DNA of 64,000 nt from Krischvirus LF73P4. The notes under the pieces are model-generated. The model was given only the letters and a program-made list of their open reading frames with translations, did not search any database and was not told the DNA's origin. Shown piece by piece: positions 190 through 62,402 of this stretch. Both the position numbers and the translations under genes were made by a program. Location of the stretch: the sequence record OZ035795.1; one strand, 5' to 3'. How positions within the stretch are numbered: the first letter of the stretch is position 1; each line of letters opens with the position of its first letter.

Positions 190-232
190 TGTGATATAGT
201 GAGAGCATCGAAAACGAAGAGAGGAAGAGACT

Positions 233-1258
233 ATGAAAATTTTGCTTTTAGGTGATCTGCATACTGGTATCGGTGGCGATGATCCGTGGGTGCATGAGTA
301 TATTCTTGATACCATCAAGAAAGCGGTTGAATACTCCAAAGAGCATAATATTAAGACATGGATTCAAACAGGGGATTGGTTTGATTGCCGAAAAGCAATT
401 ACCCATGAAACCATGAAATTTAACCGTACTAAGGTCATCCCGTTACTGGAAGAGGCTGATATTACTTGTTATATCACGGTCGGGAATCATGATATGTTTA
501 AACGAAACAAGATCCAGCCTAACGCACCGCGCGAAGTGTTAAGCCAGTATGATTGCATTAAGGTTATCGATAAACCGGAAACAGTTACCTTTGATGGTGT
601 ATCATTTGATCTGTTCCCGTGGTTTTGTGATGACAATAAATCAGAGGTTTTAGAGTTTATTCAAAACTCATTCAGCGAATATTGTGTAGGCCATTGGGAA
701 TTGTCCGGTTACTATTTCTATAAAGGGCTAAAATCCGAAGGTTATAGCTCGGACTTCCTCAAGAAATACCGTGAAGTGTTTTCGGGTCACTTTCATACTA
801 TCAGTGATGGCGGTAACGTAACGTATATTGGTACACCATACACACTAACGGCGGGTGACGAAAACGATCCGCGTGGTTTTTGGGTATTCGATACCGATAC
901 ACACAAAAAAGAGTTTATTCAGAATGACAAAACTTATCATGTGCGTATCACTTACCCGTCAGATGATAAAATCGATGTAGAACGCTTTAAAGGGCTTAGT
1001 GTGCGTCTTATCGCAACGGTCGCTGATAATGGATTAACTAAGTTAGAAAGCGCGTTAGAGGCCGTTGTACACAAGCTAAAAGTGGTCCATAAACTGGAGA
1101 GTAGCGCATCACAGGAAACAGGTGTTATTGAAGTTAAAAGCACTATTCAGATGGTCTATGAATATCTGGAAGAACAAAACCTAGAACCGGAAGAACTTGC
1201 GGCGGTCAAGCGTATTTCTGATGAACTTTTAGCCGAAGTAAATAACGCAAAAAGTTAG
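233..1258 (+). CDS. 47: recombination endonuclease subunit gp47 (Mre11/SbcD-like metallophosphoesterase)
   Basis: 341 aa; phosphoesterase motifs GDLH, GNHD, GHFH; lies upstream of gp46 as in T4. Confidence 0.9.
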   Translation: MKILLLGDLHTGIGGDDPWVHEYILDTIKKAVEYSKEHNIKTWIQTGDWFDCRKAITHETMKFNRTKVIPLLEEADITCYITVGNHDMFKRNKIQPNAPREVLSQYDCIKVIDKPETVTFDGVSFDLFPWFCDDNKSEVLEFIQNSFSEYCVGHWELSGYYFYKGLKSEGYSSDFLKKYREVFSGHFHTISDGGNVTYIGTPYTLTAGDENDPRGFWVFDTDTHKKEFIQNDKTYHVRITYPSDDKIDVERFKGLSVRLIATVADNGLTKLESALEAVVHKLKVVHKLESSASQETGVIEVKSTIQMVYEYLEEQNLEPEELAAVKRISDELLAEVNNAKS

Positions 1259-1287
1259 TTGACGCGGGGAGAAATCCCCGTTATACT
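1259..1287 (+). promoter_or_regulatory. sigma70-type early promoter candidate (TTGACG-17-TATACT) with CGGGGA/TCCCCG inverted repeat in spacer
   Basis: -35 at 1259-1264, -10 at 1282-1287; starts right after gp47 stop. Confidence 0.45.
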
Positions 1288-5385: not shown

Positions 5386-6072
5386 ATGAAACTGACTAAA
5401 GAAACCATTGCTACCCTGAAAAACTTTTCCGCTATTAACCCAGGTATCATCCTGAAAAAAGGAAACGTCCTAATCACCAAAAACATGACAAACGTTGTAT
5501 ATGGTGAAGCGACTCTGAATCAAGAACTGGAACACGAAATCGGGATCTATGATCTTAACTCTTTCCTGGGCATTCTGAATCTGGTGGGCGATGAAGCAGA
5601 TATTACGGTTGATAACCGCACCGGAAACATTCGTGTGTCTAATGATCGTCTGAAAATTAATTATCCTGGTGCTAGTGCTGCTGCTATCGTATCACCGAAA
5701 GGCCGAGTTACTCCACCTGCAAGCGATGTAGATTACGAACTGAGCAACGACGATCTGAAACAGCTTATGAAAATGAGCAATCAGCTTAAAGTGGATCGCC
5801 TTGAATTTCTACCGATTGATGGTCGTCTGATGATCAAAGGCTGGGAAGAGATTGACAAAAATAATCCTAATGAGATGTTTTGTCTTGATATGGGCGAATA
5901 TACCGGAACCGCAGACTTCCATTTCTTTATTCGTAAAGATAACATGAAACTGGTTGCTACTGACTTCGGCGATTACAAACTGAGCTTCACTCGCCGTAAG
6001 GCTGTATGGCTGGCAAGTGAAACCGTATCTTATATGATCGCGTGTGACCTTGACTCCAGCTACACCGACTAA
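5386..6072 (+). CDS. 45: sliding clamp gp45
   Basis: 228 aa, same length and clear similarity to T4 gp45 as recalled; followed by clamp loader genes. Confidence 0.9.
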   Translation: MKLTKETIATLKNFSAINPGIILKKGNVLITKNMTNVVYGEATLNQELEHEIGIYDLNSFLGILNLVGDEADITVDNRTGNIRVSNDRLKINYPGASAAAIVSPKGRVTPPASDVDYELSNDDLKQLMKMSNQLKVDRLEFLPIDGRLMIKGWEEIDKNNPNEMFCLDMGEYTGTADFHFFIRKDNMKLVATDFGDYKLSFTRRKAVWLASETVSYMIACDLDSSYTD

Positions 6073-6084
6073 TATAATGTTTGT

Positions 6085-6104
6085 GGGGAGTGTAAATACT
6101 CCCC
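6085..6104 (+). terminator. stem-loop GGGGAGT-GTAAAT-ACTCCCC followed by GTTTT (possible terminator or processing site)
   Basis: Perfect 7-bp inverted repeat just after gp45 stop. Confidence 0.35.
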
Positions 6105-8054: not shown

Positions 8055-8075
8055 GATACTGATGGGATAGGGGTA

Positions 8076-8104
8076 TTGACAAACTAAGTCGATTCCCCTA
8101 TAAT
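8076..8104 (+). promoter_or_regulatory. sigma70-type promoter TTGACA-17-TATAAT upstream of gene 43
   Basis: -35 at 8076-8081, -10 at 8099-8104. Confidence 0.5.
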
Positions 8105-8136
8105 GAGTGTCTTTCGTAAGTGAAGGAGTTTATATT

Positions 8137-10815
8137 ATGTATTTTCTGTCATGTGAGCGAGTGGGTGATAAGATCTACGAGCGTTATATTGATGATGCTG
8201 GACAAGAACAAGAGCGTTACGTTGAATATACGCCAACTTTATTTCATCATGCCGCGCCCGGTATGGTTACGAATTATAAAGATATCTATGGCAAGCCTTG
8301 CATTGCTAAAAAATTCCCATCTATGAACGAGGCCAACAAATGGCGTAAAAAGATGGGAGAAATGGGGCAGGAGGCACTAGGGATGGATGATTTTATCATC
8401 TCCTATCTGTCCGATACATATAAAGGCGAGATTCGATATGACCGAAATAAAATCCGTGTAGCCTGGGTTGATATTGAGGTCACTGCACCGGAATTTCCTA
8501 AACCAGAAGAAGCGAAATATCCTATCGATGCTATTACGCATTATGATTCCGTACATGATCGTTTCTTTGTATTTGATTTGAAAGGAAAAAACGGTGAAAT
8601 CTGGGAAGCAAGCAAGTCTATTCTTCGACCTGATATTGTAGAGCGCGTTGTTTATAACGTCTATGACACAGAAGATGAATTGCTGTTAGAATACATCCGA
8701 TTCTTTGAGGAAAACCGACCCGTTGGTTTCACTGGCTGGAACACAGAAACATTCGATATTCCATATATCATTAAACGTATCAGTAATAAGTTCGGAAGTA
8801 GAACCGCTAACCGTCTAAGCCCATGCGGTAAGATTAAATCCCGAATCTCGCAGGATGATTTTGGCAACGAGCGTGAAGCATTTACGATCATGGGGATCGA
8901 AAGCCTTGATTATATTGACCTGTACAAGAAATTTAGCTTTACGACTCAACCAACATATGCATTAGATTATGTTGCTGAATATGAGACCGGAATCGGTAAG
9001 GTTGATTATGATGGTCCGTTAAAGAAATTGCGTGATGACAACCATCAACTTTACATCGATTATAACATCGGCGACGTTGATCGTGTGCTGGCGATTGATA
9101 AAAAGCGTGGATTTATCGATCTTGTGTATAGTCTATGTTTCTATGCAAAGATTAAATTTAACCATGTTTATAACCCGATGAAAGTATGGGATGCTATTAT
9201 CTTCGGATCTCTGAAAGCAGAGGGTAAAGTAGTACCGGAAAATAAGATACAGCCTAAGCAGACTTATCCTGGCGCATTCGTAAAAGAACCTGTACCGAAT
9301 GCTTACCGTTGGATGATGAGCTTTGACTTAACAAGTCTGTACCCATCTATTATTCGACAGGTTAATATTTCTCCTGAAACAATCGCTGGATCTTTTGATG
9401 CTGCACCGATGCACGAGTATATCAATAAAACTGCACCACGTCCGAGTGATGAGTATTCTTGCTCGCCTAACGGATGGATGTATAGAAAAGATATTCACGG
9501 TATCGTACCGATTGAGATTAAAAAGGTATTCGATCAGCGTAAGCAGTACAAAAACATGATGTTGGCATGTGATCGCAATGCTGAACTCTGTAAAGCGATT
9601 CTACACGATGAAAATCATGTTTATGGGGGAACCATTAGCTATAGCGTTGAAGTGCGTCACGACTTCGATGAAGCGTTTAAATCGATGCTTTCTGAATTGA
9701 GCAAAGATGCCTTAGAGAAATTGCTGGAAGAATGTAAAGACGAGTCGATCTTGTGCAATACAAACCAGCTTTCTCGAAAAGTTTTGATCAACTCCCTTTA
9801 TGGTGCGTTGGGGAATCCTAAATTCCGTTTTTATGATCTCCGTAACGCTAGTGCGATCACACTGTTCGGTCAGCTTGCAATTCAGTGGATTGAGCGTAAG
9901 ATTAACGAATACTTAAACGAGCTTTGCGGAACGACTGATTTTGCATATGTTCGTTATTGTGATACTGACTCCGTTTATGTGCTGGTTAACAATGTTATTG
10001 ATAAGGTTGGCGGGGAAGACCGTTTCGACGATACCGAAAAACTTGTTGACTTCCTTGATAATTTCGGTAAACATCGAATGGAACCTATTATCGACAAGGG
10101 ATATCGCGAGTTATGCGAGTACATGAACAACTATGAGCACTTGATGTTTATGGACCGTGAGGCAATTGCTGGTCCTCCGTTGAAATCTGCGGGTATCGGT
10201 GGATTCTGGACTGGTAAAAAGCGTTATGCTCTTAATGTTTGGGATATGGAAGGAACGCGCTTTGCTGAACCTAAGCTAAAAATCATGGGCTTGGAAACGC
10301 AACGTAGCTCCACCCCTAAAGCATGTCAGAAATCACTGAAAGAATGTATTCGCCGTATGTTGCAGGAAGGTGAAGAGTCATTGCAGGAATACTACGGTAT
10401 TTTTGAGCAAGAATTTAGAAAACTTGACTATCTTGATGTTGCTGCGGTATCATCTGCAAACAACCTACAGAAATACAGCGATTCAAACGGGTATCCGATT
10501 AAGGGTTGTCCGTATGCGGTTAAGAGTGTATTGTGTTATAATCGTAATGCTCGAAAATTCGGACTAGACCCGATTCGTGAGGGTGAGAAGGTTATGATTG
10601 TACCGCTTAAAGACCGAAATCCGTTTGGAGAAATCTGTTTTGGTTGGTTGTCTGGTACTCGTATTCCACCAGAAATTGAATCAGAGGTGTTGAAGTGGTT
10701 GGACTGGCCTTTGTTGTTTAATAAGACTTTCGTCAAACCACTGGAGAACATTACCACGGCTGCAAAGCTGCAATATGAAAAAGTTGCTTCACTGACTGAC
10801 CTGTTTGACATTTAA
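8137..10815 (+). CDS. 43: DNA polymerase gp43 (family B, with 3'-5' exonuclease)
   Basis: 892 aa from ATG 8137 (AAGGAG upstream); motifs DIEV, SLYPS, YCDTDS; collinear with T4 gp43. Confidence 0.95.
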   Translation: MYFLSCERVGDKIYERYIDDAGQEQERYVEYTPTLFHHAAPGMVTNYKDIYGKPCIAKKFPSMNEANKWRKKMGEMGQEALGMDDFIISYLSDTYKGEIRYDRNKIRVAWVDIEVTAPEFPKPEEAKYPIDAITHYDSVHDRFFVFDLKGKNGEIWEASKSILRPDIVERVVYNVYDTEDELLLEYIRFFEENRPVGFTGWNTETFDIPYIIKRISNKFGSRTANRLSPCGKIKSRISQDDFGNEREAFTIMGIESLDYIDLYKKFSFTTQPTYALDYVAEYETGIGKVDYDGPLKKLRDDNHQLYIDYNIGDVDRVLAIDKKRGFIDLVYSLCFYAKIKFNHVYNPMKVWDAIIFGSLKAEGKVVPENKIQPKQTYPGAFVKEPVPNAYRWMMSFDLTSLYPSIIRQVNISPETIAGSFDAAPMHEYINKTAPRPSDEYSCSPNGWMYRKDIHGIVPIEIKKVFDQRKQYKNMMLACDRNAELCKAILHDENHVYGGTISYSVEVRHDFDEAFKSMLSELSKDALEKLLEECKDESILCNTNQLSRKVLINSLYGALGNPKFRFYDLRNASAITLFGQLAIQWIERKINEYLNELCGTTDFAYVRYCDTDSVYVLVNNVIDKVGGEDRFDDTEKLVDFLDNFGKHRMEPIIDKGYRELCEYMNNYEHLMFMDREAIAGPPLKSAGIGGFWTGKKRYALNVWDMEGTRFAEPKLKIMGLETQRSSTPKACQKSLKECIRRMLQEGEESLQEYYGIFEQEFRKLDYLDVAAVSSANNLQKYSDSNGYPIKGCPYAVKSVLCYNRNARKFGLDPIREGEKVMIVPLKDRNPFGEICFGWLSGTRIPPEIESEVLKWLDWPLLFNKTFVKPLENITTAAKLQYEKVASLTDLFDI

Positions 10816-10832
10816 GATAAAGTGTGTATAAT
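10805..10832 (+). promoter_or_regulatory. sigma70-type promoter TTGACA-16-TATAAT overlapping end of gene 43
   Basis: -35 at 10805-10810, -10 at 10827-10832; GGCGGGT/ACCCGCC hairpin at 10833-10859 downstream. Confidence 0.45.
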
Positions 10833-10876
10833 GGCGGGTGTTGGGTGACGATACCCGCCAATGTGAGAAATATATT

Positions 10877-12147: not shown

Positions 12148-12158
12148 CAATGGTAGTA

Positions 12159-12181
12159 AAGGGGCTACGTGCCCCTTTTTC
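12159..12181 (+). terminator. rho-independent terminator
   Basis: AGGGGC-tacgt-GCCCCT hairpin followed by TTTTT. Confidence 0.55.
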
Positions 12182-12202
12182 ATATCTAGAGAGGATTATA
12201 TT

Positions 12203-17125: not shown

Positions 17126-17154
17126 TTGACACTAATCTATAATGGTTTTATTAT
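17126..17154 (+). promoter_or_regulatory. promoter candidate TTGACA-17-TATTAT
   Basis: -35 at 17126-17131, -10 at 17149-17154; abuts terminator hairpin. Confidence 0.35.
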
Positions 17155-17184
17155 GCCTCCCGTCGAAAGATTGGAGGCTTTTTT
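17155..17184 (+). terminator. rho-independent terminator whose 3' arm contains the SD of the next gene
   Basis: GCCTCC (17155-17160) / GGAGGC (17173-17178) hairpin + TTTTTT; ATG at 17188. Confidence 0.55.
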
Positions 17185-17187
17185 ATT

Positions 17188-20223: not shown

Positions 20224-20391
20224 ATGATTATGCGAAGTATCCCAGAATTTAATGATGTGACGGTAAGCCGTCACAATGGAACTGTTACCATGTGCTTTAG
20301 ATGGGGTCTATACGGCTGGAACGTGTCCGGCGATAGTGAAGCTGCATGTATCAATAAAATGATCGAGCATTTCACTAAGCGAGGGTTTTGA
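20224..20391 (+). CDS. hypothetical small protein (55 aa)
   Basis: GAGGA upstream of ATG 20224. Confidence 0.35.
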   Translation: MIMRSIPEFNDVTVSRHNGTVTMCFRWGLYGWNVSGDSEAACINKMIEHFTKRGF

Positions 20392-20392
20392 T

Positions 20393-20635
20393 ATGGTTGT
20401 TATTAATAATGTGGCTAATGTAATACATCTACAATCAATTGTCGCGTGGAACCGTCAAAAGATTCATTGTGACTATGCACAACATGTAATGAATTTTAAC
20501 AACAAAGTACGCGCATACATGGCAACGGAACGACTGTTAACCGATAATTACGGTAACGGGATTATTGATTGTAGCGGTTTCATTCTGGATAAAAACGATC
20601 TGGAGTTGTTCCGGCATATCGCGGAGGATATTTAA
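20393..20635 (+). CDS. hypothetical protein
   Basis: 80-aa ORF. Confidence 0.4.
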   Translation: MVVINNVANVIHLQSIVAWNRQKIHCDYAQHVMNFNNKVRAYMATERLLTDNYGNGIIDCSGFILDKNDLELFRHIAEDI

Positions 20636-23403: not shown

Positions 23404-23967
23404 ATGAAAAGTGCGAAATTTTGGAATACTGAAATTCAAGAGGAATTAAAACGAAGATTTGGACACACGGAAGGTGTTCTATATCACAAAACAAATAGTC
23501 CGTCTTTTAATGGTCTGCCAGAGGGATATTTCTACCAAGTCGGTGATAAAGTAAAAACAAAAAAGTTAAATTACGGTCATTTGGCAATAGATGTTTACAA
23601 TAAGGTTAAAAAGAGAACATCTACATATCTTGTACATAGAATTGTCTGGTTTCTTGAATATGGAACACAGGTTAAGGTAATAGACCACATAGACGGGAAT
23701 CCAGAAAACAACAATCCACCAAATTTACGGGAGGCAACACAACAACAAAACATGTACAATAAAAAGAAAATGGACGGGTGCACGAGCATATATAATGGTG
23801 TTACTCATCGCAAAGGATCTAGCAAAAGACCGTGGCAAGCACAAATAAGGATAAACGGATACAGAAAATACATAGGATCGTTTGCTACTCAGGAGGAAGC
23901 CGCTAGAGCATATGATGAATATGCAAAAATTCATCATGGGGAGTTTGCATCTTTAAATTTTAGTTGA
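23404..23967 (+). CDS. HNH homing endonuclease with AP2-type DNA-binding domain
   Basis: HRIVW...IDHIDGNPENN...NLR HNH motif and YRKYIGSFATQEEAARAYDEYA AP2-like segment. Confidence 0.8.
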   Translation: MKSAKFWNTEIQEELKRRFGHTEGVLYHKTNSPSFNGLPEGYFYQVGDKVKTKKLNYGHLAIDVYNKVKKRTSTYLVHRIVWFLEYGTQVKVIDHIDGNPENNNPPNLREATQQQNMYNKKKMDGCTSIYNGVTHRKGSSKRPWQAQIRINGYRKYIGSFATQEEAARAYDEYAKIHHGEFASLNFS

Positions 23968-23991
23968 CACACAAGGGAGATTCTCTATAAT
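23964..23991 (+). promoter_or_regulatory. sigma70-type promoter TTGACA-16-TATAAT with GGGAGA/TCTCCC inverted repeat
   Basis: -35 at 23964-23969, -10 at 23986-23991; T-run 24003-24011. Confidence 0.45.
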
Positions 23992-24025
23992 GGGAGTCTC
24001 CCTTTTCTTTTATGAGGATTTAACG

Positions 24026-24325
24026 ATGAGCAAAAAGAATAACATGATGATGAGTATGGCAAAGTTCATGGAAGCAGACCTGATCAAAAATACAGTACAG
24101 CATGAACGCCAGCGAGAAGCCGCAGTGATTGCAGAACAAGGTTTTCAGGTTATCCGCAATCCACCTAAAGATACGATTAAATCGAAATACAGAGACGATC
24201 TGAAAGACCATGAAGTACGGGAACTGGTTAATGATCTGCGTGACATTGCCATCAAATATCATGGTTATCAGTGCTTACGAGAACTGATCGCAGAGCGAGT
24301 AATGGATGCCCTGAAAAAAGATTAA
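24026..24325 (+). CDS. hypothetical protein
   Basis: 99 aa; GAGGA upstream. Confidence 0.45.
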   Translation: MSKKNNMMMSMAKFMEADLIKNTVQHERQREAAVIAEQGFQVIRNPPKDTIKSKYRDDLKDHEVRELVNDLRDIAIKYHGYQCLRELIAERVMDALKKD

Positions 24326-24332
24326 AAATCTG

Positions 24333-24361
24333 TTGACGCTGGATCGGGGATATATCATAAT
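24333..24361 (+). promoter_or_regulatory. promoter candidate TTGACG-17-CATAAT flanked by GGGGA/TCCCC
   Basis: -35 at 24333-24338, -10 at 24356-24361. Confidence 0.4.
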
Positions 24362-24391
24362 GTCCCCATCGAAAACAAAAGGTTGACTTAT

Positions 24392-24586
24392 ATGAAACCG
24401 TTTAAGAATGAAGAAACTCAAAAATTTTGTGAAAAAATTGCAGAAATCTACTTGACAGGGGAAAAGGAAAAAGCTAATATTATGTTCAAAGAGTCGGTTT
24501 CTATGATGAAAGTAGCACGCTGGGAACTGATCGCAATGCAAGACCAAATTCGTTATCTAGTAACAAAGGAGAATCAAAATGCGTAA
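24392..24586 (+). CDS. hypothetical protein
   Basis: 64-aa ORF. Confidence 0.4.
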   Translation: MKPFKNEETQKFCEKIAEIYLTGEKEKANIMFKESVSMMKVARWELIAMQDQIRYLVTKENQNA

Positions 24587-24783: not shown

Positions 24784-25041
24784 ATGAGTCGAAGTTTTGA
24801 TTTTCTGATCGCCAAGTGTCATCGAGAAAAGAAATCGATGGACCTGTTTATGAAATGTTTGAGGTATGAATATGCACACCTTCGTAAACACAAAATTGAT
24901 CCGCAAGTTTCCTACGAAAACATCAAGAAATATGCGAAAGAAGTGATTGACAACGATTGCACCGTGACATATAATGCGTTTATTGATTTATGGGCGTGGG
25001 ATGTAATCTACGCAGAGATGGACAAAGAAGATTTTAATTAA
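24784..25041 (+). CDS. hypothetical protein
   Basis: 85-aa ORF. Confidence 0.45.
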   Translation: MSRSFDFLIAKCHREKKSMDLFMKCLRYEYAHLRKHKIDPQVSYENIKKYAKEVIDNDCTVTYNAFIDLWAWDVIYAEMDKEDFN

Positions 25042-25055
25042 GTGAGGATTATATT

Positions 25056-27164
25056 ATGAAAATGCATATCGATAATGAAGAAGTATTTGGCAGTGACCTG
25101 AGCGGTGCGGTTGATTTTTCACTGAAAGCAAGTAGCAAGGCTTTTATGGTGCTTTCTAAGAACACTTATCAATATTGTGAGCGTGCTTGCGTCCGTGAGT
25201 ATTCGTGCAATGCTACCGACACTCACAAAGAAGCCGGAACCTTAGATCGTCCGTTTGATATTCATTTACCGACTGCAATCGAACCGTATTTTTCTGTGCG
25301 TGATTATGGTACGGGTATTCCGTCTAAGAAAGAATTAGAACAACTGTTTACGGTTTACTTTGAATCAACAAAAGACCAGACTAATGATTATATCGGATCT
25401 TTTGGTTTAGGTGCGAAGTCTGCTTATAGCTATACTGACACCTTTACAATCGTAAACTACTACAATGGTCGCGCTTATGGCTTTACTGCATTTGTGCAAA
25501 ACTCTATGCCGAAAATGGTGCAGATTTTCGACGAACCGACCTATGAAGACAACGGTCTGAAAATCACTATTCCGGTGAAAGAAAAAGACATTCAGACATG
25601 GCATCGAGAAGCACAATTTGTACTTCGTCATTTTGGGGAACACAAACCTAATATCAATGCAATCGAAATTAATTATTTCCCTAGCTTTGATAATTATTAT
25701 GTTTGCAATGGGCGTGATAACGATTCCTATGTAGTATATGCAATCATGGGTAAGATCCAGTATCCGATCCCGTATGAATATGTTCGCGGAACATGGTTAG
25801 AAGCTGTAAACCGCCAGCACCAGACCATTTACATTAATTTTGATTTGGGTGATCTGGACCTGATGCCATCGCGCGAAGAAGTTCACTTGTCAATCGAGAC
25901 TAAAGCGAACATCGAAAAACGTATTGCAGAAATCAATGAAATGATGTTGGAAAAGGTTAAAGAAAAGATCGCCAACATTAAAACAGAGCGTAAACTTGCG
26001 CAATTTATGAGCGAGTATTCATCGACTCAACGCAATATTATTAGCAAGATGGGTAAGATCGGGCAGTGGGATGATCCGGTAGCAATCTATAATAAGTTTG
26101 TGAATGCGGGTAAAGATTCGCCTAGTGACGTAGAAGGTCAGGTGTATACTCTGTATCGTACTCGTCACACAATCAGTAAATTGCGCCCTGCTTTCGTTAG
26201 CAGTCAATACAACATTACGCATTTTGTATGGATGCATAAAGAAGATATTCTGTGTGTAATTGATGATACCGATAAACCGAAACTGCGTGCACTGACTCTT
26301 AACGGCATGGTCCAGGAATACGGAATCAATAAAAAGGTACTGGTGTTCCGTCAGCGCAACGAAAAACATATGGAGACTTTCGAGTACATCAAACAGTATT
26401 ATGATGAATCTGAAATGACCGTGATTAAGGTATCAGAGGCCGATGATCTGCGTGCTAAAGCAGTTAAACCGGAAAAGACCGAGCGTACACAACGTGAAGC
26501 GACTCCCAAGCTGCCTAACGTGTATATCATGGAAAAGATTGGTGACAGTTGGCATAAAACCAGCCATCACATGAAAGCGGCAGAGATTCGCGAGTTATCA
26601 GGCTTGCACATGTTCCGCGTAGGTGATGCATTCGAAAGCCGTAGTCGTAAATCGATCTATAGTGAAAATACATTACACACGGCGCTTGACTACTTCGGGG
26701 TAACAAAGTATATTATTACTCGAAACGAGACACAAAAATATCTCGTTGACGAACAATTGGAATGTGCGCTAGAATTTGTTCGCGGTAAGCTGGCTGGTCT
26801 GGCTAAGAAGGTTAAGACCAATCATCTGGGGTATGGCGAATATCTGGGTGTGATCACTATGTTGTTTCATGACGATGAACTAGAACGCTGTGTTCCAGAA
26901 TTTATTGACAGACTGTACGGTCGTCATTATAATAAAGAGGTTTCCAAGTTACTCCTTCGTACTCGTTGGATTATGGACGAAGAAACTAAAAAGATCTGTG
27001 ATGAAAAATTCACGGCAGCAAACGAACGAATTAAAGCAGTTTGTGCGAAGTTTAAAGAGAATAGCCCGTTACTGTATGATATTGTAGATAACTGGTATCG
27101 TATTCTGCATAACGACAAACGCGCACAAGACTTTATGAAACTGGTTAAGAATGTTAAATTTTAA
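25056..27164 (+). CDS. rIIA: rIIA lysis-inhibition/membrane integrity protein
   Basis: 702 aa; GHKL-like boxes (REYSCNATD, RDYGTGI, GSFGLGAKSA); adjacent to rIIB. Confidence 0.8.
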   Translation: MKMHIDNEEVFGSDLSGAVDFSLKASSKAFMVLSKNTYQYCERACVREYSCNATDTHKEAGTLDRPFDIHLPTAIEPYFSVRDYGTGIPSKKELEQLFTVYFESTKDQTNDYIGSFGLGAKSAYSYTDTFTIVNYYNGRAYGFTAFVQNSMPKMVQIFDEPTYEDNGLKITIPVKEKDIQTWHREAQFVLRHFGEHKPNINAIEINYFPSFDNYYVCNGRDNDSYVVYAIMGKIQYPIPYEYVRGTWLEAVNRQHQTIYINFDLGDLDLMPSREEVHLSIETKANIEKRIAEINEMMLEKVKEKIANIKTERKLAQFMSEYSSTQRNIISKMGKIGQWDDPVAIYNKFVNAGKDSPSDVEGQVYTLYRTRHTISKLRPAFVSSQYNITHFVWMHKEDILCVIDDTDKPKLRALTLNGMVQEYGINKKVLVFRQRNEKHMETFEYIKQYYDESEMTVIKVSEADDLRAKAVKPEKTERTQREATPKLPNVYIMEKIGDSWHKTSHHMKAAEIRELSGLHMFRVGDAFESRSRKSIYSENTLHTALDYFGVTKYIITRNETQKYLVDEQLECALEFVRGKLAGLAKKVKTNHLGYGEYLGVITMLFHDDELERCVPEFIDRLYGRHYNKEVSKLLLRTRWIMDEETKKICDEKFTAANERIKAVCAKFKENSPLLYDIVDNWYRILHNDKRAQDFMKLVKNVKF

Positions 27165-31361: not shown

Positions 31362-31388
31362 AAGCCGATCCTTGTGGTCGGCTTTTTT
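31362..31388 (+). terminator. rho-independent terminator
   Basis: AAGCCGATC / GGTCGGCTT hairpin followed by TTTTTT. Confidence 0.55.
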
Positions 31389-31402
31389 ATTTGAAAAGTT
31401 GT

Positions 31403-31431
31403 TTGACTTCCATAATCCAGCATTGCATAAT
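31403..31431 (+). promoter_or_regulatory. sigma70-type promoter TTGACT-17-CATAAT
   Basis: -35 at 31403-31408, -10 at 31426-31431. Confidence 0.45.
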
Positions 31432-31675: not shown

Positions 31676-31710
31676 TTGACACCAGAACAAGGGAGTAGTA
31701 ACATACTCCC
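31676..31710 (+). promoter_or_regulatory. repeated promoter + stem-loop cassette, copy 1 (TTGACA-17-TAACAT; GGGAGTA/TACTCCC)
   Basis: -35 at 31676-31681, -10 at 31699-31704, inverted repeat 31691-31710. Confidence 0.5.
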
Positions 31711-32380: not shown

Positions 32381-32415
32381 TTGACTCCAAAGGTCATCGG
32401 TAGTATTATACTCCC
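32381..32415 (+). promoter_or_regulatory. repeated promoter + stem-loop cassette, degenerate copy 2 (TTGACT-17-TATTAT)
   Basis: -35 at 32381-32386, -10 at 32404-32409, imperfect repeat ending TACTCCC 32409-32415. Confidence 0.45.
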
Positions 32416-32442
32416 ATACCGAAACGAACTGGAGGAATTAAA

Positions 32443-32692: not shown

Positions 32693-32727
32693 TTGACGTA
32701 AAGATAAGGGAGTAGTAACATACTCCC
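32693..32727 (+). promoter_or_regulatory. repeated promoter + stem-loop cassette, copy 3 (TTGACG-17-TAACAT)
   Basis: -35 at 32693-32698, -10 at 32716-32721, inverted repeat 32708-32727. Confidence 0.5.
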
Positions 32728-32973: not shown

Positions 32974-33008
32974 TTGACACAGGATTAAGGGAGTAGTAAG
33001 ATACTCCC
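32974..33008 (+). promoter_or_regulatory. repeated promoter + stem-loop cassette, copy 4 (TTGACA-17-TAAGAT)
   Basis: -35 at 32974-32979, -10 at 32997-33002, inverted repeat 32989-33008. Confidence 0.5.
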
Positions 33009-42255: not shown

Positions 42256-42288
42256 AAAGTAACCTCAAAAATTAGTTATAGTTCCGAG

Positions 42289-42296
42289 TATTTATA
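42289..42296 (-). promoter_or_regulatory. T4-type late promoter box TATAAATA
   Basis: Exact TATAAATA on - strand, 33 nt upstream of gp36-like ATG. Confidence 0.55.
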
Positions 42297-42465
42297 GAAT
42301 GTTAACAAAATATCGCTTCGCGACGTGCCGTAGGCACTGACTACTTTTTAACCGAAACAAATTTTCTATTATTCTAAAGATCTTTCTTCGTTTTGGTTAT
42401 GTTTTAACCAATAACTATATTTTTATACAGTAATAAATAAAACGGGTACTATACGAGGACTTCTT

Positions 42466-53318: not shown

Positions 53319-53331
53319 GTGTATGATTTTA

Positions 53332-53366
53332 AAAGCCAATTCGAGAGAGTTGGCTTTTTCCATTTT
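53332..53366 (+). terminator. rho-independent terminator after gene 8
   Basis: AAAGCCAA / TTGGCTTT hairpin followed by TTTTT. Confidence 0.55.
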
Positions 53367-53371
53367 TGGTG

Positions 53372-53399
53372 TTGACAATATTATTTGGTAAGGTATAAT
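53372..53399 (+). promoter_or_regulatory. near-consensus sigma70-type promoter TTGACA-16-TATAAT
   Basis: -35 at 53372-53377, -10 at 53394-53399, 30 nt upstream of ATG 53429. Confidence 0.55.
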
Positions 53400-54846: not shown

Positions 54847-54872
54847 AAGCCGTCCTCCTGGGCGGCTTTTTT
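54847..54872 (+). terminator. rho-independent terminator after methyltransferase
   Basis: AAGCCG...CGGCTT hairpin followed by TTTTTT. Confidence 0.6.
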
Positions 54873-61400: not shown

Positions 61401-61407
61401 GAAATTA

Positions 61408-61428
61408 AAGGGGCGTTAAGCCCCTTTT
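61408..61428 (+). terminator. rho-independent terminator after wac
   Basis: AAGGGGC-gttaa-GCCCCTT hairpin followed by TTTT. Confidence 0.5.
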
Positions 61429-62384: not shown

Positions 62385-62402
62385 TGGGGGAGTATTCCCC
62401 CA
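62385..62402 (+). other. stem-loop TGGGGGA-gtat-TCCCCCA between genes 13 and 14
   Basis: 7-bp perfect inverted repeat followed by TTT and the gene 14 SD. Confidence 0.4.

Follow-up and report, generated by a model that had tools for sequence, protein, structure and literature searches.

Two composite elements lie on the plus strand in the region between gp39 and rIIA of Krischvirus LF73P4 (OZ035795.1). The window analysed here is the whole 64,000-nucleotide stretch that contains them. Early transcription runs along its plus strand, which corresponds to the minus strand in the RB49 record. Gene names are carried over from the annotation of kvi and RB49. The window begins with gp47, gp46, rpbA, gp45, gp44, gp62, regA, gp43, uvsX, gp41 and gp61, continues with gp56, modB, srd, dda, dexA, gp39, the focal region, rIIA, rIIB and gp52, and then enters a hyperplastic region of ORFans (31.4-36 kb) that is followed by the late genes. 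Intergenic spacers are very short at 20-70 nt. A 3-kb stretch around the focal site matches 58 genomes of RB49-type coliphages (Krischvirus) at approximately 98% identity, among them kvi, G37-3, JSE, RB49, phi1 and GEC-3S.

The focal element (23964-24013) is preceded by a homing-endonuclease gene (23404-23967, plus strand) that is located between gp39 and the focal cassette and carries HNH_3 (Pfam, 6e-14) and AP2 domains. The TGA stop codon of this gene falls within the -35 hexamer of the focal promoter (23964-23991, plus strand), which consists of TTGACA at 23964-23969, a 16-nt spacer and TATAAT at 23986-23991. This promoter matches the consensus at 12 of 12 positions, has a predicted start at about 23998, and is invariant in nine aligned relatives. 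Overlapping it on the same strand is a hairpin whose arms, AAGGGAGAUUCUC and GGGAGUCUCCCUU, form a 13-bp stem (23973-24004) that includes two G.U pairs. The 6-nt loop, UAUAAU, is the -10 hexamer itself. A U-rich tail, TTCTTTTAT, follows the stem at 24005-24013 and has seven U residues in nine nucleotides. The predicted folding energy is -21.3 kcal/mol (z -4.7), and none of 200 shuffled sequences folds equally well. Thus, the stretch 23973-24013 has the GC-rich stem, the short loop and the 3' U-rich tract that characterize intrinsic terminators. By its sequence, 23964-24013 is predicted to be a consensus promoter that shares its letters with an intrinsic terminator of textbook form. The homologue of 23973-24004 is annotated as a terminator in the G5211 record, and the GEC-3S record has an overlapping promoter (-35 and -10 signals) and terminator at the homologue of 23964-24004. 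The stem is identical across the nine aligned relatives that were inspected for covariation.

The gene downstream of the focal element (24014-24325, plus strand) has a GAGGA Shine-Dalgarno (SD) sequence at 24014-24018 and an ATG at 24026, and encodes a 99-amino-acid ORFan homologous to RB49p005 for which no Pfam family is found. This start codon, rather than the ATG at 23990 inside the focal hairpin, marks the beginning of the gene. The upstream stop codon is thus inside the -35 hexamer, with the SD at 24014 and the start codon at 24026. A BLAST search with a 71-nt query against 50,697 phage records finds the focal cassette only at the orthologous locus of the 58 Krischvirus genomes, where it is kept in every record as a single copy. 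This indicates that the 23964 cassette itself has not been dispersed.

The second composite is found at 24333-24370 on the plus strand. Its promoter, TTGACG-17-CATAAT (24333-24361), is annotated at the homologous position in GEC-3S. A hairpin with the arms GGGGATAT and ATGTCCCC (24346-24367, extendable to 24342-24370) surrounds the -10 hexamer, which is bracketed by GGGGAUAU and AUGUCCCC. This hairpin has a predicted energy of -14.6 kcal/mol (z -2.6) and is not followed by a U-tract. The change G24362A in GEC-3S and KMB43 converts a U.G pair to U-A, and is the sole wobble-to-Watson-Crick change seen among the relatives.

Composite elements across the window

There are 13 clear promoter/stem-loop composites in the window, plus one degenerate copy. 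The first is at the boundary between gp47 and a small ORF (1259-1287, plus strand), where the promoter TTGACG-17-TATACT carries a CGGGGA/TCCCCG hairpin in its spacer (1264-1281; -13.6 kcal/mol, z -3.1). At the gp45/gp44 boundary (6050-6104, plus strand), TTGACT-17-TATAAT (6050-6078), annotated as an early promoter in the RB49 record, is followed 7 nt past its -10 hexamer by the hairpin GGGGAGT/ACTCCCC (6085-6104, z -4.2) and then by TTTT. The DNA polymerase gene gp43 has a composite on each side. Upstream (8067-8104, plus strand) is the perfect promoter TTGACA-17-TATAAT (8076-8104), whose -35 hexamer and spacer are enclosed by an ATAGGGG/CCCCTAT stem (8067-8101; -17.7 kcal/mol, z -3.6), and an early promoter is recorded at the homologous position in RB49. 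Downstream (10805-10860, plus strand) is TTGACA-16-TATAAT (10805-10832), directly followed by a 12-bp hairpin (10832-10860; about -22 kcal/mol, z -5.9).

Another hairpin, at 12158-12187, is located further downstream of a -10 hexamer, past the predicted start, and resembles a terminator with a U-rich tail. Upstream of modB (17126-17187, plus strand), the promoter TTGACA-17-TATTAT (17126-17154) is followed by a hairpin (17155-17178, z -4.7) and then by TTTTTTATT. At 31362-31431 (plus strand) the order is reversed, such that a terminator hairpin with a T-run (31362-31392) lies upstream of the -35 hexamer of TTGACT-17-CATAAT (31403-31431). The same arrangement is found upstream of ORFans in the baseplate module (53331-53399, plus strand), where a terminator hairpin (53331-53358) precedes TTGACA-16-TATAAT (53372-53399).

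The hyperplastic region contains a family of repeats on the plus strand in which a GGGAGTA/TACTCCC hairpin surrounds the -10 hexamer. Copy 1 is at 31676-31710 (TTGACA-17-TAACAT), copy 2 at 32693-32727 (TTGACG-17-TAACAT) and copy 3 at 32974-33008 (TTGACA-17-TAAGAT), and the degenerate copy is at 32381-32416.

The promoters match the consensus at 12 of 12 positions at 23964, 8076, 10805 and 53372, and at 10 or 11 of 12 positions at 1259, 6050, 17126, 24333, 31403, 31676 and 32974. The stems are located upstream of the -35 hexamer (31362, 53331), over it (8067), in the spacer (1265), over the -10 hexamer (23973, 24346, 31691, 32708, 32989) or after it (6085, 10832, 17155). The 20 nt upstream of the -35 hexamer have a mean AT content of 70%, compared with 59% for the whole window (p = 2e-4). 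This value is at least 75% in nine of 14 sites, including 80% for both elements of the focal region, and is lower at 6050, 8076, 10805 and 12116. A frequent flank is AAAAAnTTAG|TTGAC, which means that the stop codon of the upstream gene abuts the -35 hexamer. An Rfam scan of the whole window gives no matches at the gathering score.

The initial annotation had reported promoters with G-rich inverted repeats at 1259-1287, 8076-8104, 23964-24002 and 24333-24367, and all four are present at these positions. Its description of GGGAGA...TCTCCC around the -10 hexamer at 23964, followed by a T-run, corresponds to the 13-bp stem and U-rich tail described above. It had also named two related hairpins as free-standing, and both are real. 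The one at 62385-62402 (TGGGGGA/TCCCCCA, plus strand, between the late genes gp13 and gp14) folds only marginally better than shuffled sequences (z -1.8) and is not counted as a composite because there is no sigma-70 promoter nearby. The other, at 6085-6104, is not free-standing, as it follows the promoter at 6050-6078.

The stringent pattern TTGAC-N18-TAnnnT occurs 20 times in the window, compared with 3.4 +/- 1.9 occurrences expected from shuffled sequences, and the plus strand carries 19 of them. When spacers of 16-18 nt are allowed, there are 35 sites on the plus strand versus four on the minus strand. Loose promoter-like matches (9 of 12 positions) are no more common than in shuffles (51 versus 46.9). 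GC-rich perfect stems, defined as at least 5 bp with at least four G-C pairs and a loop of 3-24 nt, are concentrated in gene-boundary zones. These zones make up 12.8% of the window and hold 33 of the 108 stems, where 13.8 are expected (p = 1e-6). Boundary zones also hold 23 of the 37 stems with G-run/C-run arms, and such stems are G-first in 26 cases and C-first in 11. Explicit stem counting was used for these comparisons; a sliding 44-nt minimum-free-energy scan of both strands, which returned 269 + 241 clusters at or below -11 kcal/mol, proved too unspecific.

The check proposed with the initial annotation, namely whether inverted repeats are enriched at promoter-like sites, has a clear outcome. 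Among sites matching at least 10 of 12 positions, a stem lies within 45 nt of 11 of the 18 at gene boundaries versus two of the 25 that are intragenic (Fisher p = 3e-4), and a random window of equal size has a 14% chance of containing such a stem. This confirms that the association between hairpins and promoters is not a chance effect.

Probable identity as promoter-early stem-loops

These elements very probably are PeSLs (promoter-early stem-loops), the composite regulatory cassettes of RB49 and phi1, and we place the probability of this assignment at roughly 90%. PeSLs were described for RB49 and phi1 by Arbiol, Comeau, Kutateladze, Adamia and Krisch (2010, Genome Biol Evol 2:140; PMC2839356), and the concept was later widened to T4/PST and KVP40/nt-1 (Comeau et al. 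2014; PMC4122927). The 2010 paper defines a PeSL as a sigma-70 consensus promoter with an AT-rich upstream region and polyG...polyC stems that include G-T pairs, and distinguishes five subclasses by the position of the stem. RB49 is reported there to hold about 51 PeSLs, mainly in hyperplastic regions, and g43 is bordered by them on both sides.

The composites in the window share these features. They belong to the same lineage (98% identical to RB49), have the sigma-70 consensus and polyG...polyC stems with G-T pairs, and include all five of the published positional subclasses. They occupy the gap that separates the stop codon of one gene from the SD and ATG of the next, are dense in the hyperplastic region (the 31.4-33.0 kb cluster), are located on either side of g43 (8076 and 10805), and lie near indels between close relatives. 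There is no essential difference. One feature specific to this window is the HNH/AP2 gene abutting the -35 hexamer at 23964, which supplies the gene with its stop codon. The window also adds figures for U-tracts, sense-strand bias and start-site geometry, which are implied rather than quantified in the available text of PMC2839356. The finding is therefore correct but already known, because the family was described in 2010 in the very same phage lineage, and the published picture is unchanged. The initial annotation was right that the elements as a group are real, but it did not recognize the described family and missed the link to indel boundaries.

In the same paper, lacZ reporters revealed a strong sigma-70 early promoter and a stem-loop that acts as a terminator or attenuator of upstream transcription. 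Termination was about equal to that by rrnB T1 in an assay of a single stem-loop, that of PeSL211/210, and whole PeSLs were such strong promoters that most clones had mutated. Copies reported there with activity or circles are PeSL193/192, 206/205 and 211/210, and the ORF192 and ORF210 circles. The mini-circles were sequenced as products of recombination between PeSLs, which is proposed to shuffle ORFs. The present analysis covers sequence anatomy, enrichment, sense-strand bias, start-site geometry and indel boundaries, and draws promoter and terminator activity and mini-circle formation from this literature on other copies. By analogy with the published copies, we infer that those in the window have PeSL function. 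MotA-dependent middle promoters are absent from RB49-type phages (PMC1524935), which fits the presence of early promoters ahead of the replication genes in the window.

In the proposed mechanism, each 20-70 nt spacer would be packed with an often AT-rich stretch, a GTTGAC-N16-18-TAnnnT promoter, a G-run/C-run stem-loop, and the SD and start codon from which the following gene is translated. The stem-loop would sit ahead of the hexamers, on them, in the gap that separates them or immediately behind them. A polymerase arriving from upstream would transcribe both arms, and the resulting hairpin in the nascent RNA would cause termination or attenuation. Where a U-run follows, as at 23973-24013, the hairpin would be a true intrinsic terminator. 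A polymerase that initiates at the cassette’s own promoter would start inside or beyond the hairpin, and would thus make a transcript without the full stem and escape termination. Each small early gene would thereby be insulated and re-driven. In addition, the mutual likeness of the cassettes may make them preferred crossover points for the gain, loss or swapping of ORFs.

The geometry of the composites is consistent with this scheme. When the start is taken to be about 7 nt after the -10 hexamer, the hairpin of 11 of the 13 composites lies upstream of the predicted start, either wholly or by its 5' arm. Therefore, a complete stem could form only in RNA arriving from upstream and not in the cassette’s own transcript, which suggests that the hairpins would act on read-through transcripts rather than on RNA made from the cassette promoter. 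Moreover, 17 of 20 hairpins are more stable as sense-strand RNA (Wilcoxon p = 4e-4), and G.U pairs number 15 in the sense orientation versus one in the antisense. The proposal in the initial annotation that hairpins at gene boundaries couple termination or processing of read-through RNA with re-initiation is essentially the PeSL function given in PMC2839356, and the sense-strand stability, the position upstream of the start and the terminators annotated in G5211 and GEC-3S agree with it.

Only about six of the 13 hairpins are followed by a U-rich tail, namely those at 23973, 17155, 31362, 53331 and 12158, and weakly that at 6085. There is no U-rich tract after the stems at 1264-1281, 8067-8101, 10832-10860, 24346-24367, 31691-31710, 32708-32727 and 32989-33008, where one to four T residues are found in the 9 nt past the stem. 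These seven are for this reason better named attenuators or stem-loops than canonical terminators, and hairpins of this kind would be weak intrinsic terminators at best.

Several known arrangements are similar in part. The elements at 23973-24013, 17155-17187, 31362-31392, 53331-53367 and 12158-12187 resemble the Rho-independent terminators of E. coli and T4-like phages in having a GC-rich stem, a short loop and a U-rich tail. They differ in being interleaved with a promoter, to the point that the loop is the -10 hexamer at 23973, and in that seven of the 13 stems in the window have no U-tract. In phage morons (Juhala/Hendrix), too, a single small gene has its own promoter and terminator and is transcribed autonomously, whereas PeSLs are conserved linkers proposed in PMC2839356 to mediate recombination themselves. 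The coupled or overlapping promoters and terminators of bacteria share with the PeSLs the general idea of a physical link between the sites where neighbouring units start and end transcription, as presented in the available text of bioRxiv 10.64898/2026.08.19.745784.

PeSLs explain how dozens of tiny early genes in T4-type phages can be insulated and individually driven, and how genes can be shuffled between genomes while their neighbours are left undisturbed. Recognizing them also gives correct start sites, operon boundaries and likely recombination joints. The additions made here are modest, and consist of the quantified sense-strand bias, the start-site geometry and the observation that only about half of the stems resemble true intrinsic terminators.

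Indel boundaries and competing explanations

The HNH_3 and AP2 gene upstream of the focal element is present in the window phage, kvi, JSE, FL15 and G5211, and is absent from RB49, GEC-3S, 011D4 and KMB43. Homology with the genomes that do not have it restarts precisely where the -35 hexamer begins, at its first T (23964). The gene product is 42% identical to RB49p040, a paralogue that lies upstream of gp47 in RB49 and is absent from the window. Next to the second composite, JSE and FL15 do not have the ORF at 24392-24586, and their divergence begins immediately 3' of the 24346-24367 hairpin. At 31.4-33.0 kb there are three indels relative to RB49 and kvi, each of which is bounded by the repeated GGGAGTAGTAACATACTCCC cassette. 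Overall, a cassette coincides with a breakpoint in four of the five early-region indels relative to RB49, and the remaining one (RB49p040 HNH, window 232-236) is away from any promoter cassette. The indels that touch cassettes appear, from these alignments, as predicted by the PeSL model. For the HNH insertion beside 23964, the mobility of homing endonucleases would be an equally good explanation, with the cassette playing no role.

One competing explanation, which we consider unlikely, is that independent terminators and promoters overlap merely because they share spacers of 20-70 nt, in which case they would not be cassettes as such and would play no part in recombination. Such short spacers would partly force co-occurrence. 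Also, the stems vary in sequence, in loop length (4-21 nt) and in position relative to the hexamers, while strong T-run hairpins without a promoter are found at 152-179, 54847-54868 and 61407-61427, and perfect promoters without a hairpin at 24947 and 26905. However, crowding does not account well for a near-identical cassette of about 50 nt that occurs in three to four copies at 31.7-33.0 kb and borders indels, or for the recurrence of shared flanks such as AAAAAnTTAG|TTGAC. Nor does it sit well with the mini-circles formed by crossover between such cassettes, whose sequencing is reported in PMC2839356. In any event, this explanation is a weaker version of the functional PeSL reading.

It is also conceivable, but rather doubtful, that the hairpins without a U-tract (1265, 8067, 10832, 24346, 31691, 32708, 32989) serve mainly in RNA stability or processing and are not terminators. 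Perhaps they protect 3' ends after processing, or are targets for an RNase that segments the polycistronic early RNA. RNA processing had also been suggested in the initial annotation. The seven stems without a U-rich tail are located exactly at cistron boundaries, and the bias toward sense-strand stability would suit any role at the RNA level. On the other hand, the authors of the PeSL work assign terminator or attenuator activity to the stem-loops (PMC2839356), and no stem in the window matches an Rfam family.

A related and more speculative idea, to which we give little credence, is that the U-tract-less stems (1265, 8067, 10832, 24346 and the GGGAGTA family) form a non-terminator class that would define or protect the ends of cistrons in read-through early RNA, or provide landing pads for mobile ORFs, including HNH genes. 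If they were landing pads, inserted ORFs would arrive already wired to a promoter and an insulator, and the HNH gene abutting the -35 hexamer at 23964 would represent a targeted insertion and not a coincidence.

The palindromes might instead function as DNA, either as operators where early promoters are turned off by a dimeric repressor from phage or host, or as cruciforms that influence how readily the promoter opens. They overlap the -35 hexamer, the spacer or the -10 hexamer, which are the usual positions of operators, and other means of controlling early promoters are conceivable in phages of the RB49 type, where MotA-dependent middle promoters are absent (PMC1524935). This role is very improbable, and we reject it, because the arms differ in sequence, in spacing (the loops are 4-21 nt long) and in where they lie on the promoter, a misfit with a single binding protein, and because nearly all G.U pairs are on the sense strand (15 versus one) and would become A.C mismatches on the opposite strand or in a cruciform. 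The greater stability of 17 of the 20 hairpins as sense RNA points to selection on the transcript, and U-runs follow several of them.

Lastly, the idea that G-runs and C-runs fall close to promoter-like strings by coincidence, for which only the marginal hairpin at 62385 and the unremarkable count of loose promoter matches could be cited, is refuted by the enrichment statistics (20 stringent sites versus 3.4, with 19 on one strand; p = 1e-6 for boundary stems and p = 3e-4 for their association with promoters), by individual hairpin z-scores of -2.6 to -5.9, and by conservation of the focal element in 58 records.

A recombinant junction at 42.3 kb

A separate observation concerns window positions 42302-42411, which fall within a repeat of about 100-110 bp that occurs twice in RB49, in inverted orientation and with 93.6% identity between the copies. 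This repeat does not contain a sigma-70 consensus and is not a PeSL. One RB49 copy is in the gp3/ORF130 spacer (62.8 kb) and the other is between gp35 and gp36 (150.0 kb). The junction in the window is absent from 59 phage records and from eight contigs that encode an identical ORF130 protein, and an exact-anchor pattern scan of IMG/VR gave no matches to it. The window sequence is a clean recombinant of the two copies, in which gp36 is joined directly to ORF130-gp2-gp4-gp53-gp5, and this implies either an inversion of about 87 kb or an assembly chimera.

Gene junction at 42.3 kb

The gene gp36 is joined directly to ORF130/gp2/gp4/gp53/gp5 in the region spanning 42256-42465, and the join itself lies within 42302-42411. 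Here, gp36 corresponds to RB49 at about 150.0 kb in reverse orientation, and ORF130/gp2/gp4/gp53/gp5 correspond to RB49 from 62.8 kb onward in forward orientation. The join falls within a sequence of approximately 110 bp, and RB49 carries an inverted repeat of this sequence, with copies at 62.8 and ~150.0 kb that share 93.6% identity. A three-way alignment places a clean crossover between both RB49 repeat copies at this location. There is no match to the gp36-ORF130 junction among 59 related phage records, it is absent from eight public contigs that encode an identical ORF130 protein, and an exact-anchor scan of IMG/VR recovered none. The junction represents either an inversion of ~87 kb or an assembly chimera.

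Genes flanking the focal promoter

There is a free-standing homing-endonuclease gene with HNH_3 and AP2 domains at 23404-23967, which forms an insertion 3' of gp39. Relative to RB49, the final ~10 codons of gp39 are replaced at this insertion, and the gp39 stop codon overlaps the start of the inserted gene (TAATATG). At the other end, the TGA stop codon of the endonuclease gene is included in the -35 element (TTGACA) of the next promoter. The encoded protein is 42% identical to RB49p040, which in RB49 is found upstream of gp47, unlike the gene adjoining gp39 described here. A counterpart of RB49p040 is absent from the window at 232-236.

The gene downstream of this promoter is annotated in the kvi and 011D4 records in a long form (23990-24325, 111 amino acids), wherein the ATG at 23990 sits within the -10 element and its associated hairpin. 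The RB49, JSE and G5211 records annotate a short form of 99 amino acids (24026-24325). We favour the ATG at 24026 as the start codon, because a Shine-Dalgarno sequence is located at 24014-24018 and the transcription start site is predicted to be at about 23998.

Other promoters and hairpins

Two perfect (12/12) sigma-70 promoters are located within coding sequence and lack a hairpin. One resides in a small ORF directly upstream of rIIA (24947-24975) and the other is close to the rIIA 3' end (26905-26933). Both probably serve as internal promoters that drive rIIA and the genes following it.

A strong terminator-like hairpin (AAGGGAGACUC/GGGGUUUCCCUU, then TTTTATTTTT) is located upstream of gp47 at 152-190, a site that lacks a sigma-70 promoter. 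Its 5' arm is similar to the corresponding arm of the hairpin at 23973 (AAGGGAGA). Three G.U pairs occur in this hairpin, which folds 9 kcal/mol more weakly on the antisense strand.

The RB49 record annotates the -10 element of a 'hypothetical late promoter' at RB49 20510-20516, which is 14 nucleotides downstream of the early -10 element matching window 6073-6078. When placed by this offset from RB49, the late -10 position coincides with the loop (GTAAATA, 6092-6098) of the hairpin at 6085-6104. Thus, the gp45/gp44 spacer may carry three superimposed elements, namely an early promoter, a stem-loop and a potential late promoter.

Differences from kvi

The DNA polymerase gene of kvi is split by a 1.1-kb insertion, equivalent to about 9330-9339 in the window, and is annotated as two DNA polymerase CDSs with a hypothetical protein in between. 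Unlike in kvi, gp43 (8107-10815) is unbroken in the window. In addition, a 58-nucleotide stretch (20339-20396) gives two alignments with kvi, which is longer by about 178 nucleotides at this site and carries an extra small ORF, kvi_151. There is no promoter cassette at 20339-20396, and the difference looks like the gain or loss of an ORF in tandem, with short direct repeats on either side.
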